This document shows positions 3,475-8,757 of a DNA stretch of 30,775 bases, piece after piece. Numbering within the stretch: position 1 is the first letter of the stretch; every line of letters starts with the position of its first letter. Under the pieces are notes generated by a model. That model saw nothing but the letters and a program-made list of their open reading frames with translations, ran no database searches and had not been told where the DNA came from. This DNA comes from a virus (taxonomy: Duplodnaviria > Heunggongvirae > Uroviricota > Caudoviricetes), in IMG/VR virus record IMGVR_UViG_2877958089_000005; one strand, written 5' to 3'. The translations under genes were made by a program, and so were the position numbers.

Positions 3475-3675
3475 ATGCTGAAAAGTGAACCGTCATTCGC
3501 GTCTCTGCTCGTTAAGCAAAGTCCCGGCATGCACTACGGCCACGGCTGGATCGCAGGTAAGGACGGCAAGCGCTGGCACCCGAGCCACTCGCAGGCTGAT
3601 TTACTGGCTGGCCTCTCTACTCAAAAGCGGGGGGGATCATGGCTATCGAAGCTGTTTCCGCGACTGTTCCGCTAA
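3475..3675 (+). CDS. Small early protein, possibly Fil-like (186 filamentation protein family); uncertain
   Basis: ATG at 3475 preceded by GAGG (3466-3469); 66 aa MLKSEPSFASLLVKQSPGMHYGHGWIAGKDGKRWHP...; position after cII matches 186 fil. An overlapping alternative-frame ORF (3485..3685) cannot be excluded. Confidence 0.4.
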   Translation: MLKSEPSFASLLVKQSPGMHYGHGWIAGKDGKRWHPSHSQADLLAGLSTQKRGGSWLSKLFPRLFR

Positions 3676-3977
3676 AAGCGGGTGAACGTCTGGCCGGTCT
3701 CAATCATGTTGCCGAATTGCGCGCGAGATATTGGGGCGATAGCTGGAAAGAGGTTGAACGTTTTGTCGATGATATGCGCGATAAACGTGACCCACAATTT
3801 GAAGAAAATAATCGGGCGCTGGCCGCTATTTTCTTTCTGGCAAAAATACCGGCGGCTCGTCATGAACTCGAATTAAGTGAGCTGACTACTGACGAGAAAA
3901 AGGCGCTTATTACAGCGATGAATCATTTTCGTGCAGTAGTGAGCTTATTTCCCAAACGGCTAACCATGCCGAATTAA
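3639..3977 (+). CDS. Hypothetical early-operon protein
   Basis: 112-aa ORF with GGGGGGA SD-like run immediately upstream of ATG 3639; codirectional with the early operon. Confidence 0.55.
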   Translation: MAIEAVSATVPLKAGERLAGLNHVAELRARYWGDSWKEVERFVDDMRDKRDPQFEENNRALAAIFFLAKIPAARHELELSELTTDEKKALITAMNHFRAVVSLFPKRLTMPN

Positions 3978-4494: not shown

Positions 4495-6717
4495 TTGGCT
4501 GTTCAATTCGCTTATCCGTGGAACGTCCCACGGTCGGCAATCTCCAGCCCATACCTTACTTATGAGCAACAGCATCGCCGCGACCGTATGTTCGCGGCTT
4601 TGCTGCATGCGAAAAAGGTGCTTTCTCTCCAGCCCGACTGCGTGCGGTTAGATGTTTATCGCACTGCTGCGGTGCTGGAGCAAAATCAGGGTAGTCAACG
4701 AGCCAATGCATTTTTAATCAGCTTCTGCAAAAAGGCATTGCCGCGTCTTGAACTGGTCGCAAAAAAATACGAATGCGCTGGTATCAACAGCAAGGTATCA
4801 ACCGCTGTTTTTGGAAGTCATTTTGATACTCAGCAAATGCAATATCTGTCGTCACGCATGGTTAATATGGTCGCCCGATATAACCGTCTCCCGGACATGT
4901 CGCGCGCTGATGTTGACCTGTTGGCCGCTGATATTGCTAATTTCATTCGTGGTGAACTTGCCAACATTAATGACCACGGATTCGGCGAGCTTAAAACGCT
5001 GTACACCTGGTATATTCGTGCTGGCTTTATTTCCCTCCAATTCAACGTTATCCCACCACATTGGGAGCGGGTTGAAAAAAAATATGTCGGTGCGGATGAA
5101 ATCGCACCGGCTATCGCCAAAATGTTTAACGATGGGTGGTGGCGCGGTCGTTTGCGCCGTGTTGCAGCTACGTGGCGCGAACACCTGCAAATTGCAGTCG
5201 GCAACGTCAGTAAGAAAAAAAACACTTACGCGAGTAAAAACTGCGTGACTGACTGGCGTGAACAAAAGCGCCGCACTCGTGAATTTCTCAAAGGTCTGGA
5301 TCTCGAAGACGAAGACGGCAACCGTATCAGCCTAATTGAAAAATATGATGGCTCAGTTGCTAACCCTGCGATTCGCCGCTGTGAGCTCATGACCCGCATT
5401 CGTGGGTTTGAAAACATCTGTAATGAGCTCGGTTATGTCGGTGAGTTTTACACTCTAACCGCGCCGTCAAAATATCACGCCACGACTAAAGCCGGTTACC
5501 GTAACAGCAAATGGAGCGGTGCCAGCCCGGCTGACACGCAAAACTATCTAACCGGTATCTGGGCGCGTATCCGTGCCAAACTACATCGGGAAGATGTCCG
5601 TATTTTCGGTATTCGTGTCGCCGAGCCCCATCACGACGGCACTCCACACTGGCACATGCTGATGTTCATGCTGCCGGAAGATGTTGAATATGTTCGCTCC
5701 ATCGTCCGTAAATACGCATGGAAAGAAGACCGCCACGAACTGAAAAGCGATAAATCCAAAAAAGCACGTTTCCACGCCGAGTCCATTGACCCGGAGAAAG
5801 GCAGCGCAACCGGCTATGTTGCTAAATACATTTCAAAAAATATCGACGGTTATGCTCTCGATGATGAAACCGATGATGAAAGCGGTGAGCTGCTGAAAGA
5901 GACAGCCCCCGCCGTTTCAGCATGGGCTGCGCGCTGGCACATCCGTCAGTTTCAGTTTATTGGTGGTGCGCCGGTGACGGTTTACCGTGAGTTGCGTCGC
6001 CTCGCTGATACCGAAACCGCGCACGGTCTGAGCGTTGAGTTTGCCGCCGTCCATGATGCCGCCGACGCTGGTGACTGGGCTGGTTATGTTAATGCTCAGG
6101 GTGGGCCGTTTGTCCGTCGCGATGATTTACAGGTGCGCACACTGTATGAACCGCGTACCGAGCTTAATCAGTACGGTGAGGAAACGGTATGTATTAAGGG
6201 GGTCTACGATTCCTCCATAGGTGCAGGAAGCCCGATTTTAACCCGGCTCACTCAGTGGAAGATTGTTCCGAAGCGTGCTGTTGATTTGGCCGTTGACCTT
6301 CAGGACGGCAAAGCCGTCCCTCGGAGTTCTGTCAATAACTGTACGGGAAGCGAAAGCGATCCACCGATACTGGATTTAACAAAACCACTGAGTCGGCGTG
6401 AAAGACGAGAATTAACCAACCGACTCAGGAAGCAAAAGCCAGCAGCACGGCGAAAATTCATCCACGGAACGGATGAGCAAAACGCAGCTATAGCTAAAAC
6501 TATCGATGAGATACATCTGACAACCGGCATTAATATCAGCCGGGGCGAAGCCCTGCACCTGATGGCCGGTGGTAAAAGTTGTTTTGATGGTAAATGGCTA
6601 CGCGGAACGGCCAAAGGAGAAATATTTTCCGCAGCACCATCGCATGAGGCTAAAGCTCGGAAAATCCTTAATCGTGTTGCGGCGATGGCTGAAGCATCAA
6701 AACCAATACATGAGTAA
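4495..6717 (+). CDS. A: Replication initiation endonuclease (P2 gpA-type rolling-circle initiator)
   Basis: 740 aa; HUH-like PHHDGTPHWHMLMF and tandem tyrosines in GYVAKYISKNIDG, as in P2 A. Track start 4495 is TTG after a G-rich SD-like run; first in-frame ATG is at 4588, so the start is uncertain. Confidence 0.9.
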   Translation: MAVQFAYPWNVPRSAISSPYLTYEQQHRRDRMFAALLHAKKVLSLQPDCVRLDVYRTAAVLEQNQGSQRANAFLISFCKKALPRLELVAKKYECAGINSKVSTAVFGSHFDTQQMQYLSSRMVNMVARYNRLPDMSRADVDLLAADIANFIRGELANINDHGFGELKTLYTWYIRAGFISLQFNVIPPHWERVEKKYVGADEIAPAIAKMFNDGWWRGRLRRVAATWREHLQIAVGNVSKKKNTYASKNCVTDWREQKRRTREFLKGLDLEDEDGNRISLIEKYDGSVANPAIRRCELMTRIRGFENICNELGYVGEFYTLTAPSKYHATTKAGYRNSKWSGASPADTQNYLTGIWARIRAKLHREDVRIFGIRVAEPHHDGTPHWHMLMFMLPEDVEYVRSIVRKYAWKEDRHELKSDKSKKARFHAESIDPEKGSATGYVAKYISKNIDGYALDDETDDESGELLKETAPAVSAWAARWHIRQFQFIGGAPVTVYRELRRLADTETAHGLSVEFAAVHDAADAGDWAGYVNAQGGPFVRRDDLQVRTLYEPRTELNQYGEETVCIKGVYDSSIGAGSPILTRLTQWKIVPKRAVDLAVDLQDGKAVPRSSVNNCTGSESDPPILDLTKPLSRRERRELTNRLRKQKPAARRKFIHGTDEQNAAIAKTIDEIHLTTGINISRGEALHLMAGGKSCFDGKWLRGTAKGEIFSAAPSHEAKARKILNRVAAMAEASKPIHE

Positions 6718-6777: not shown

Positions 6778-6809
6778 TTGCCAATACATGCTACTGTATA
6801 AATATACAG
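6778..6809 (+). promoter_or_regulatory. SOS-regulated promoter: -35 TTGCCA (6778-6783) with a perfect LexA box CTGTATAAATATACAG (6794-6809) overlapping the -10 region
   Basis: Exact CTGT-N8-ACAG palindrome with AT-rich core; SD GGGAGGG and ATG 6831 immediately downstream. Confidence 0.8.
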
Positions 6810-6830
6810 TAACCCTATGGGAGGGATTTC

Positions 6831-7013
6831 ATGGTTGGCGAACATTTCAGCCGAACGCAGCAAAAGTGGGCTTGTGTGCAATTTATTGCCGAGGTATCTC
6901 TGATTGCAAACTGCAAGCCATCAGACTTAAAGCTCGCGCTCACTCTCATTGCAGACCTAGCAAACAGCGAAAATAACGAAACCGAAGATGATAATTTTTA
7001 TAAGGCTGATTAG
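6831..7013 (+). CDS. Small LexA-controlled protein, candidate Tum-like antirepressor N-terminal module
   Basis: 60-aa ORF directly downstream of the LexA box with SD GGGAGGG; ends at TAG 7011-7013, in the same frame as the following DinI-like ORF. Confidence 0.55.
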   Translation: MVGEHFSRTQQKWACVQFIAEVSLIANCKPSDLKLALTLIADLANSENNETEDDNFYKAD

Positions 7014-7016
7014 ATT

Positions 7017-7250
7017 ATGAGAATCAATATCACGTTGGATAAAGAGCAAAAAATTAGTCAGGCAACATTGGATGCACTTGAGGCTGAACTGTACCGCAAT
7101 CTTCAACCTATTTACCCAAAGACTGCTATCCGAATTCGCAAGGGCTCCGCTAATGGCGTTGAACTAAGCGGTTTGAAACTGGACGAAGATAAAAAACGAG
7201 TAATGGAAATCATGCAGCAGGTATGGGAGGACGATAGCTGGCTGCATTAA
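7017..7250 (+). CDS. DinI-family protein (SOS-associated; 186 Tum-like C-terminal module)
   Basis: 77 aa MRINITLDK...LDALEAEL.R...E.DKKRVMEIMQQVWEDDSWLH resembles E. coli DinI (MRIEVTI...IDALAGEL...ISEILQETWESADDW) along its whole length. Confidence 0.75.
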   Translation: MRINITLDKEQKISQATLDALEAELYRNLQPIYPKTAIRIRKGSANGVELSGLKLDEDKKRVMEIMQQVWEDDSWLH

Positions 7251-7252
7251 CA

Positions 7253-7321
7253 AACGCCGCCGGTGCTGAAACTTGCTTTCAGTGCTGGCGGGGTTGAACA
7301 ACTCGCACCGCGAGGCGCTAG
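7253..7321 (+). repeat. Direct repeat copy 1 (69 bp) with internal 15-bp stem hairpin
   Basis: aacgccgccggtgctgaaacttgctttcagtgctggcggggttgaacaactcgcaccgcgaggcgctag; about 60 of 69 positions identical to copy 2; arms ccgccggtgctgaaa / tttcagtgctggcgg pair fully if G-U wobble is allowed. Confidence 0.8.
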
Positions 7322-7445
7322 TTCTTCCTCTCAAAGTTTCTCGATGTTTTATTGGTTACACACCAGTGATGAATGGGACGTTACCTTAGCGGGTTTTATA
7401 GTGGCGCTGTGGCAGCACTAAATAAAATTCATTGAGGGCGATAAT

Positions 7446-7655
7446 ATGCATCGACTACCGGGCGAAATTCCGCAGCACAAAACTAAAAGCATCAAACTGA
7501 TGGCCATCGTTCATCGTCTGCAGCAGATAATGGTCAATGAGAATTTGACACCCGCCGAGCTGGTCGGGTGTGCCGAAATAGTCAGGGATAATTACGGCAA
7601 GCTGGATAGCATCAGCAAGCCGACACATTACTCACCGCCACCACGTCGACCATAG
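7446..7655 (+). CDS. Hypothetical small protein flanked by the two 69-bp repeats
   Basis: 69-aa ORF; GAGGG 7 nt upstream of ATG 7446; stop lies immediately before repeat copy 2. Confidence 0.45.
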   Translation: MHRLPGEIPQHKTKSIKLMAIVHRLQQIMVNENLTPAELVGCAEIVRDNYGKLDSISKPTHYSPPPRRP

Positions 7656-7657
7656 AT

Positions 7658-7726
7658 AACGCCGCCGGAGTTGAAACTCGCTTTCAGGTCTGGCGGGGTT
7701 GAACAACGAGCTACGCGAGGCGTTAG
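7658..7726 (+). repeat. Direct repeat copy 2 (69 bp) with internal hairpin
   Basis: aacgccgccggagttgaaactcgctttcaggtctggcggggttgaacaacgagctacgcgaggcgttag; same architecture as copy 1. Confidence 0.8.
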
Positions 7727-7788
7727 CCGGTCATAGCGTCGCAAATACTTCAACCGTCTGCTGGTTAAATAATTCGAGGTTTTTGGAC

Positions 7789-7983
7789 ATGCAAAATCCC
7801 CTTTCATCGAAAAATGACCCGTTTGCCGATTGGGCAAAGAATCTGACTTTAATGGCTTTAAATAACGACCTGAGCTCTCGCGAGGTGGAAAGCTACACCG
7901 CAAAAATGGTCGAGCAGGCCGGTAAAGATGAGCTATCAGTCGTTATCAAACACCTGTTAAATCACATCAGAATGCGCAAATAA
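7789..7983 (+). CDS. Hypothetical small protein
   Basis: Track ORF 7699..7983 begins inside repeat copy 2; ATG at 7789 (MQNPLSSKNDPFADW...) is a more plausible start; 64 aa. Confidence 0.4.
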   Translation: MQNPLSSKNDPFADWAKNLTLMALNNDLSSREVESYTAKMVEQAGKDELSVVIKHLLNHIRMRK

Positions 7984-7999
7984 GAGGAACTATATAAAT

Positions 8000-8101
8000 A
8001 TGTTATCTCTCGTTTATGAAAATCCGTGGACGACGATTTTTCTGATGATTGTTGCCAGCATGTGCCTCAACAGTGTTATTGGCGCATTGCGCGGTCATTA
8101 A
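8000..8101 (+). CDS. 33-aa hydrophobic single-TM peptide (MLSLVYENPWTTIFLMIVASMCLNSVIGALRGH); candidate small membrane toxin-like or regulatory peptide
   Basis: Below the ORF-track size cutoff; SD AAGAGGA (7982-7988) then ATG 8000; followed by a canonical terminator. Confidence 0.4.
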   Translation: MLSLVYENPWTTIFLMIVASMCLNSVIGALRGH

Positions 8102-8122: not shown

Positions 8123-8149
8123 GCCGGCACCCTGAATGCCGGTTTTTTT
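8123..8149 (+). terminator. Rho-independent terminator
   Basis: ccggca-ccctgaa-tgccgg stem-loop followed by ttttttt. Confidence 0.7.
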
Positions 8150-8309
8150 ATGCCATTTTTCCGCGAATTTCCCGTTTTTTAGTCGTGCATGCATCAGGTG
8201 CATGGTTTTGCATGCGTCAGTCTTGCCCGTTCTGTTCGTGCGCCGCCAGAGCTAGCGCGGATCCAGAGTTGTCATGCAACTGCATTAAAACCGCCCCATA
8301 AAGCGGGCA

Positions 8310-8328
8310 GGCGTGGCGGGGAAAGCAT
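8310..8328. other. Candidate cos site (cohesive-end sequence)
   Basis: ggcgtggcggggaaagcat matches 17 of 19 positions of the P2 cos sequence as I recall it (GGCGAGGCGGGGAAAGCAC); located in the gene-free GC-rich stretch upstream of portal gene Q, where cos lies in P2. Confidence 0.55.
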
Positions 8329-8532
8329 TGCGCGCCAGCGGTGGTGCGTATTATTAAAAATTATCGTCTGAGAACGTCGTGACGGCGCTGTAGTGGCCGG
8401 GTGTGATCGTGGGCGCGTGGTGCGTCTGTGGCGTGGTGCTAAAGGATGGGATCAGTTGCACAATTTTACGGTTTCGCTTTGGCTAATATCCATATTGAGA
8501 CTTTATGTTCCCCACAACAGTTGGAGGCTTTA

Positions 8533-8757
8533 ATGGATAACTATCATATTACAAAAGATGGCGATAAGTGGAAGTTGCAAAAAGAGGGCAATGACCGCCC
8601 TAGCAAGACCGCGACCACAAAGGCCGAGCTGATTAAAACAACATCTGAGTTTATGTCGAACAAAACAGGCTCGGTCAAAATTCACAAGGAAGATGGGAAA
8701 ATTCAGGAAGAACGCACTTATCAGAGAAAAGATGATCCTAAAAAGTCTAAAGGCTAA
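8533..8757 (+). CDS. DUF2188-like small protein (moron between cos and Q)
   Basis: ATG 8533 preceded by GGAGG; 74 aa MDNYHITKDGDKWKLQKEG...IHKEDGKIQEERTY..DDP..KG fits my recollection of the DUF2188 pattern. Confidence 0.55.
   Translation: MDNYHITKDGDKWKLQKEGNDRPSKTATTKAELIKTTSEFMSNKTGSVKIHKEDGKIQEERTYQRKDDPKKSKG

Follow-up and report, generated by a model that had tools for sequence, protein, structure and literature searches.

Stable hairpins of about two helical turns lie just after stop codons in polycistronic messages, both as REP-type stabilisers and as the intergenic RNase III sites of phage T7; they are structures of the sense strand, and several related copies can occur in one operon. 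Hairpin sites of another kind, the attC sites of integrons, are found behind the successive small gene units of a locus in which accessory genes accumulate, and in mosaic phages short conserved boundary or linker sequences mark the joint between conserved and interchangeable parts. In P2-like phages such a joint borders the gpA–gpQ ('TO') interval next to cos, a hotspot of accessory and defence genes whose exchange mechanism has been left open (Rousset et al., PMC9122126). Here we describe a 69-nt element, E, that resembles each of these systems in part. It occurs twice, at 7253–7321 (E1) and 7658–7726 (E2) on the + strand, in a 30,775-nt stretch of DNA (the window; IMG/VR virus record IMGVR_UViG_2877958089_000005) that is a 186/PSP3-type prophage of the P2 family. 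The two repeats are paralogous copies of a widely conserved, functional-looking sequence, a 19-bp hairpin followed by a 26-nt tail, and are not a product of chance. E is a previously unannotated element present in about half of P2/186-type prophages. It is this conserved structured element that appears to be new; the hotspot itself was already known, having been defined by its flanking genes, and E provides its structured left edge.

E1 and E2 are identical at 59 of their 69 positions (86%, 10 mismatches) at a spacing of 405 nt, and the repeat search reported only this one two-copy family of 69 nt at these coordinates. Allowing up to three mismatches, the 16- and 17-nt cores of the element have no other site in the window (expected, 0.33 and 0.11), and a covariance model run against all 30.8 kb returned just two matches, E1 with 91.6 bits and E2 with 88 bits, the reverse strand scoring 17–23 bits under the same model. 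In E1 the hairpin spans 7253–7295, with 19 pairs, one G.G mismatch and the loop CUUGC, and the conserved tail (GAACAAC...GCGAGGCGCTAG) spans 7296–7321; in E2 the hairpin spans 7658–7700 and the tail 7701–7726. The initial annotation of this stretch, made from the sequence alone, had described two 69-nt direct repeats, each with a long hairpin, and the repeat search, folding and covariance model all confirm this. Its statement that the 15-bp arms of each copy pair fully when G-U wobble is allowed holds for E1, with 15 contiguous pairs including three G-U pairs, and fails for E2, in which one G.G mismatch interrupts the arms. Likewise, the repeats were said to flank a 69-amino-acid (aa) open reading frame (ORF) precisely, which is correct on the 3′ side, where E2 begins 2 nt past the stop at 7655, and incorrect on the 5′ side, where 124 nt separate the 3′ end of E1 from the start of the ORF. 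E1 itself begins 2 nt past the stop (7250) of a DinI-like gene. That the repeats are not CRISPR repeats is also upheld, as there are only two copies, at a spacing of 405 nt, and they enclose a protein-coding gene.

E is a conserved, covarying hairpin module specific to the + strand. Folded as RNA, the + strand of E1 reached −35.5 kcal/mol (z = −4.0; none of 200 shuffles was as good) and that of E2 −28.5 kcal/mol (z = −2.4), and the − strands reached −25.3 and −19.5 kcal/mol, respectively. The 15 contiguous pairs of E1 are extended to 19 by AAC/GUU beyond the G.G mismatch. RNAalifold, applied to an alignment of 107 element variants, predicts the hairpin with compensatory double changes in 7 of 14 predicted pairs; over the full 19-pair helix, 91.8% of cells are paired and both sides have changed in 8 of the 19 pairs. 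Neither the covariation score nor the paired percentage was reached by any of 500 shuffles, and sliding the helix partners as a control lowered pairing to 33–47%. Divergent E1 copies illustrate how the stem is maintained: CTGAAA/TTTCAG is replaced by CAAAAA/TTTTTG with pairing kept, and strongly diverged first copies carry CAAAAACUAGCUUUUUG in place of CUGAAACUUGCUUUCAG together with a changed lower stem and still form the helix, as do E1 copies that score just 26–29 bits against the sequence profile. The strand preference is seen in the wobble pairs as well as in the energies. There are 251 G.T cells against 28 A.C cells, three mid-stem wobble positions are conserved, and the + strand hairpin is the more stable one in 104 of 108 variants (−26.6 versus −17.8 kcal/mol). 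The length of the stem, which corresponds to about two helical turns, is nearly invariant among the 107 variants.

The loop (CUYGY) and the 26-nt tail (GAACAAC[GAGC/TCGC]NNNGCGAGGCGTTAG) are conserved in sequence, and the mean column identity of the element alignment is 87%. The loop (CUUGC in E1, 7273–7277; CUCGC in E2, 7678–7682) is complementary to GCGAG in the tail (7311–7315 and 7716–7720) in 95.7% of cells among 106 variants, with almost no covariation, only two double changes being found, each in a single sequence; a loop–tail pseudoknot is possible from this complementarity. In E1 the same GCGAG could alternatively pair locally with CTCGC at 7302–7306. Only 17–19 of 106 variants form the two central pairs of this small second hairpin of the E1 tail (CTCGC/GCGAG), which is therefore not a conserved feature. 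Complementary targets of the tail elsewhere in the window did not rise above chance, and no Rfam 15 family matched the whole window at gathering thresholds or the 7200–7800 region at E ≤ 10. Several other identities were considered and set aside. A LexA box in the hairpin apex is contradicted by the CTG-N11-CAG spacing there, which is one base too long for the consensus; a sigma-70 promoter in the tail (TTGAAC-N17-GTTAGY) has a poor −10 hexamer as judged by eye, with no A at position 2, and the promoter scan was empty there; and a kinship of the tail with the cohesive end (GGCGGGG, GCGAGGCG) was dropped as coincidence, the cos of the window reading GGCGTGGCGGGG and the 8-mer being shared only with the P2 version.

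To collect copies of E, IMG/VR and one genome from each species were scanned with a degenerate pattern and then searched with a profile, which gave 165 full copies (108 distinct variants) in 141 loci of Enterobacterales. The genera with real copies are Escherichia, Citrobacter, Enterobacter, Trabulsiella, Kluyvera, Erwinia, Scandinavium and Symbiopectobacterium, and the hits of the same scan outside enterobacteria are attributable to chance. BLAST located the element in 66 phage records. Among complete E. coli genomes, 454 of 5,426 have it, with one or two sites per genome, which does not fit a dispersed repeat of the REP/BIME, ERIC or MITE type; REP sequences in particular number hundreds per genome. 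All three E. coli loci inspected are P2-family prophages with the element between the replication endonuclease and portal genes, and RefSeq has no annotation at the element in an E. coli genome (Res13-Sevr-PER07-33) with an identical copy of E2. Prevalence was assessed on loci fetched by replicase homology alone and hence not selected for the element. Among complete gpA-to-portal intervals, it is present in 47 of 73 of the 186 type and 37 of 80 of the P2 type, together 84 of 153. Two loci scored as lacking it, L231 (5342–5390) and L235 (8502–8560), have a very diverged hairpin right after the DinI/Tum stop, in which the apical GAAAACUGGUUUUUC-like part is kept, the lower stem is different and the conserved tail is gone.

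E is also the left border of the known gpA–gpQ accessory and defence hotspot. At the first base after the element (after ...GGCGTTAG) the information content falls to ~0.2 bits; the sequence thus changes exactly at the 3′ end of E, which therefore forms the left border of the variable region. E2 is the last conserved sequence ahead of it in the window. At least 36 unrelated sequence groups begin at this base, one of them an 'empty' state in which the terminator and cos come directly next, and 10 of the 36 cargo types are found behind more than one class of upstream gene. At the right-hand junction of the cargo, an alignment revealed no element, partial copy or short direct repeat, and homology among relatives returns there at the terminator or at a 33-aa ORF before it. 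In the searchable hotspot literature, no structured element is mentioned at the left edge and the sequence of E appears in none of the papers; the work of Nilsson et al. from 2004, whose title is said to name site-specific recombination here and in which this sequence may already have been reported as a DNA feature, lay outside that search.

The conserved genes to the left of the border are themselves arranged in modules, each ending in E. Permuted architectures include A-dinI-orf97-E, A-tumA-dinI-E and A-tumA-dinI-E-gp37-E, the last being that of the window, as well as A-dinI-orf97-E-gp37-E, A-orf91-gp37-E and A-orf91-gp37-E-orf97-E. Two relatives (L118 and L165) correspond to the window minus one 405-nt unit of element and ORF, with flanks that are 99.7% identical on the DinI side and 99.6% identical downstream. 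Their single element is of the E2 type at every diagnostic position, which, with the near-identical flanks, means that the junction lies no further than 11 nt into the element. At all variable columns, element variants follow the cargo class more than the upstream class, so that crossovers inside E, which would leave the 5′ half with the upstream gene and the 3′ half with the cargo, were rejected as an explanation. Direct inspection also found several element variants inside one cargo class, and both edges of the element are therefore junctions. With 36 downstream partner types, several upstream ones and the gain or loss of one unit among relatives, the suggestion that the repeats mark a module boundary in an accessory hotspot is borne out.

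In 92 of 164 copies, exactly 2 nt separate the element from the stop of an upstream ORF on the same strand (40 aa or longer), and in 139 of 164 the gap is no more than 14 nt. Three families account for 141 of 159 of these ORFs, namely gp37-like (76), 186 orf97-like (35) and DinI/Tum (30). No locus has more than two copies, and in 21 of the 23 two-copy loci their spacing is 395–431 nt. Every tabulated two-copy architecture at this spacing has the same gp37-like gene between the copies; an orf97-like gene takes this place in the other two of the 23 loci and in four loci of the P2-type set. Of the loci examined, only two have a gp37-like gene without the element behind it. The 69-aa ORF of the window (7446–7655, + strand; phrog_11386), a member of the PSP3 gp37 family, ends in ...PPPRRP. 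The C-terminus PPPRR[PR]-stop (last codons at 7635–7655 in the window) is conserved with synonymous codon variation in this family, and the gp37-like ORF is therefore a genuine gene. Polyproline and Pro-Arg-stop ends can pause ribosomes. The polyproline end lies just 2 nt before the hairpin, and translation of the gp37-like ORF might open it. The protein has no Pfam, NCBIfam or PDB relative, and its 184 homologue clusters, almost all from Enterobacteriaceae, have no informative name. Annotation of this small gene seems incomplete in older phage records. In Wphi (L004, 3765–3998), the stop 2 nt upstream of the element would end a candidate gp37-like ORF that is unannotated in the record, the annotated orf92 (3651–3845) ending 155 nt upstream of the element. 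The 69-aa ORF is thus a conserved partner of the element and not variable cargo. This corrects a natural first impression, shared by the initial annotation, that the repeats bracket the small ORF like the boundaries of a mobile cassette: the same conserved gene recurs between copies at a spacing of 395–431 nt, and it is to the right of the last copy that the content varies.

The surroundings of E in the window follow the order gpA-like replication nuclease, LexA box, tumA, DinI/tumB, E1, 69-aa ORF, E2, 64-aa ORF, 33-aa ORF, terminator, cos, DUF2188 gene and portal gene, the last on the opposite strand. The gpA-like gene occupies 4495–6717. A perfect LexA box (TACTGTATAAATATACAGTA; 6792–6811, + strand; 0 mismatches, 0 expected in shuffles) lies in the promoter region upstream of tumA and matches the position of the p95 LexA site annotated in phage 186. 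Behind it, the tum gene is split as in PSP3 into a tumA-like ORF of 60 aa (6831–7013, + strand; phrog_1993 at 1e-31; annotated TumA in PSP3) and a DinI-family/TumB-like ORF of 77 aa (7017–7250, + strand; Pfam DinI at 7e-24; phrog_189). An intrinsic terminator (GCCGGCA...TGCCGG followed by T7; 8123–8149, + strand), equivalent to t95b of phage 186, is the point at which the homology of relatives resumes to the right of the cargo. From its sequence signals, the stretch from the LexA box to this terminator looks like a single SOS-inducible operon holding both copies, which would be transcribed together in the sense direction. Phage 186 has a single copy of the element, separated on its upstream side by 8 nt from orf97 and on its downstream side by 23 nt from t95b, which is annotated as terminating the SOS (p95) transcript. 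The 186 element, lying between orf97 and t95b, is therefore within the mapped sense transcript of that phage.

The reading that we favour, tentatively and at somewhat less than an even chance, is that E serves as an intercistronic or 3′-untranslated RNA stem-loop in the stability or processing of mRNA and has also become a joint for recombination. The first part of this reading draws on the resemblance to intercistronic stem-loops and to RNase III sites of phages, on the constant two-turn stem and on the place of the element after stop codons. E would be transcribed in the sense direction in the early/SOS operon, only a few bases behind the stop codon of whichever conserved gene comes last (DinI/Tum, orf97 or gp37-like), and its hairpin in the mRNA would act as a barrier to 3′–5′ exonucleases or as a processing site of the RNase III type, which would uncouple the stability of the upstream message from whatever cargo lies downstream. 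As a side effect, an element kept intact by selection between variable flanks would provide a shared patch at which modules could be joined, gained and lost, and one such event might have placed the second unit of E and gp37-like ORF after the DinI gene in the window. The covarying + strand stem of 19 pairs and two turns is what would be expected of a stabilising or processing hairpin, as is the bracketing of both copies by the LexA box (6792–6811) and the terminator (8123–8149), although transcription in the window is deduced from these signals and from the transcript context in 186. Of the functions first suggested for the repeats, an RNA processing or stability element is the one best supported, by the strand-specific covariation, its role being inferred.

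Several observations weigh against this reading. A generic exonuclease barrier requires neither the conserved CUYGY loop nor the 26-nt single-stranded tail, which REP-type and RNase III hairpins do without, and both features point to a specific partner. G.T pairs are tolerated in single-stranded DNA too, so the strand bias would fit a + strand DNA hairpin as well as an RNA. The element is missing from ~45% of complete gpA–gpQ intervals, and any benefit must be modest or dependent on context. In reference P2 (L156, NC_001895, 3646–3685), 38 nt separate orf91 from the end of tin, with neither the element nor a gp37-like ORF. Because it is absent from many complete intervals and from reference P2, the element is dispensable. 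Finally, in some element-less relatives (L183, L204, L206 and L214) the place of E is taken by a terminator of the t95a type. Such a hairpin follows tum at the position of E1 in some relatives, and the t95a and t95b terminators share the operon neighbourhood of E; in E, however, the stem is followed by GGGGUUGAAC with no U-run, and in 186 the element is separate from t95b and upstream of it. An intrinsic terminator was also rejected for the copies in the window, since GGGGUUGAACAAC follows the stem, again with no U-run, and the terminator scan was empty at either copy. Many E. coli prophages of the P2 type, for example that of IHE3034 (L158, 4792–5069), have both the element and the gp37-like ORF.

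It is improbable that E is instead a DNA recombination site, at which a single-stranded hairpin directs the site-specific or structure-directed exchange of modules as an attC analogue, a substrate of the gpA HUH nuclease or a point of template switching. Such a site would account for the sharp mosaic junctions at both edges of E, for the same cargo behind different upstream genes and for the permuted module orders with E after each; the one resolved gain or loss has its junction at the foot of the hairpin, no more than 11 nt into E, and not in the longest (18-nt) block of identity, and the exchange mechanism of the hotspot is an open question (PMC9122126). Yet selection on an intact functional element would produce sharp junctions too, and the position of the junction derives from a single event. 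E is like attC at the base of the stem, which reads AAC...GTT, with a nearly invariant 3′ flank GTTGAAC that fits the R′ core GTTRRRY. No inverse core R″ (RYYYAAC) is present, the AAC-ending 7-mers being AACAAAC in E1 and AGATAAC in E2, so that the pairing of R″ with R′ is reduced to the 3 bp of AAC/GTT. The attC crossover falls at G|TT, whereas E is conserved for 26 nt beyond GTT and the variable sequence begins only after ...GGCGTTAG; attC is folded from the bottom strand and conserved in structure only, whereas E favours the top (sense) strand and has 87% column identity. Nor does E form cassette arrays: no locus holds more than two copies, the genes enclosed by a pair are of just two conserved kinds (gp37-like and orf97-like), an IntI-type integrase not having been searched for, and the right-hand cargo junction lacks a repeat. 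As for gpA, alignment of E with its nick site at ori gave z-scores of −0.5 to 2.4, no better than shuffles or random windows, and a pseudo-origin was rejected on the same grounds. A more specific version, in which the + strand hairpin is exposed during rolling-circle replication and cut by gpA or used in template switching, so that units of E and cargo move between co-resident P2-type phages, is doubtful, more so than the general proposal. If true, hairpin-directed exchange would give phages an equivalent of integron cassettes and account for the reshuffling of the cos-adjacent defence hotspot.

The conservation of loop and tail would be in keeping with E as an RNA switch that controls its neighbours or the cargo, a specific regulator in place of a general stability or processing element; it might be bound by a dedicated factor, for which the gp37-like protein is a candidate, or be worked by a ribosome paused at PPPRRP-stop. 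The complementarity of loop and tail GCGAG in 95.7% of cells, the presence of E behind the gp37-like ORF in all but two loci examined and the polyproline end of that ORF 2 nt before the hairpin are consistent with this. We nevertheless regard it as unlikely, marginally less so than the gpA or template-switching version above, as E also follows DinI and orf97 genes without a gp37-like ORF, the gp37-like protein has no recognisable RNA-binding family or other annotation and the loop–tail pairing hardly covaries. A DNA role in replication, with the hairpin on the displaced + strand ~0.9–1.4 kb downstream of the gpA nick serving in priming or helicase loading for the lagging strand, has less still to commend it. 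It would fit the structure selected on the + strand, the fixed orientation near ori, the conserved loop and 3′ flank that are typical of such signals, and a nick site that reads on the + strand (CCTCGG|AGTTCTGTCAATAAC), which by analogy with phiX174 would make this the displaced strand. But ~45% of relatives lack E, as does P2, which replicates normally; a duplicate copy would be pointless for such a role; and such a role gives no reason for E to be so closely tied to stop codons and to the edge of the cargo. At the far end of the scale, and very improbable, stands the view that the hairpin itself has no role, E being a neutral leftover of local duplication or a palindromic DNA operator. Two copies in the window with 86% identity are what it would predict, and the initial annotation had listed both a duplication footprint and an operator pair. 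This view is largely refuted by the covariation, the strand bias and the + strand stability: the stem has been kept by compensatory changes across many genera, in strongly diverged copies and even in the E1 copies of 26–29 bits, which a mere duplication footprint does not explain; an operator pair is unlikely with a covarying stem and no fixed half-site; the wobble bias is unlike recognition of double-stranded DNA; and the CTG-N11-CAG spacing does not fit a LexA box. The probability left over from the stability or processing hairpin and these rivals belongs to something not considered here.

The P2-like gpA–gpQ locus is one of the best-known reservoirs of anti-phage defence systems. A discrete, strand-specific 69-nt element of conserved structure forms the left edge of this hotspot in about half of the phages, and many kinds of cargo start at the same base behind it. 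Annotators thereby gain a precise landmark for the limits of the cargo. For experimentalists, E is a small, mutable target with which protection of the upstream SOS/early message, its insulation from the cargo or a role in exchange could be addressed. Distinguishing E from a mere patch of homology is its base-pair covariation.

To the right of E2, the first accessory gene is a 64-aa ORF (7789–7983, + strand; phrog_2454); SEN1 is without it yet keeps E2. The 33-aa hydrophobic ORF (MLSLVYENPWTTIFLMIVASMCLNSVIGALRGH; 8000–8101, + strand) recurs just upstream of the t95b-type terminator in many related loci, whatever cargo precedes it, and could encode a small membrane peptide. Between the terminator and the portal gene, the sequence GGCGTGGCGGGGAAAGCAT (8309–8327, + strand) can be read, which we take to be the cohesive-end sequence of a 186-type cos. 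Its position, in the gap between terminator and portal gene, is in line with the description of the hotspot as lying next to cos (PMC9122126). Beyond cos and before the portal gene comes the DUF2188 gene (8446–8757), which some relatives lack and which does not belong to the part of the hotspot that runs from gpA to cos. A weak 26-nt direct repeat (73% identical) was also found at 6780–6805 and 7976–8001, both copies ending in TATAAATAT; the first overlaps the LexA box and promoter region and the second lies just ahead of the 33-aa ORF, and the pair may be due to chance or may mark a second promoter-like site.

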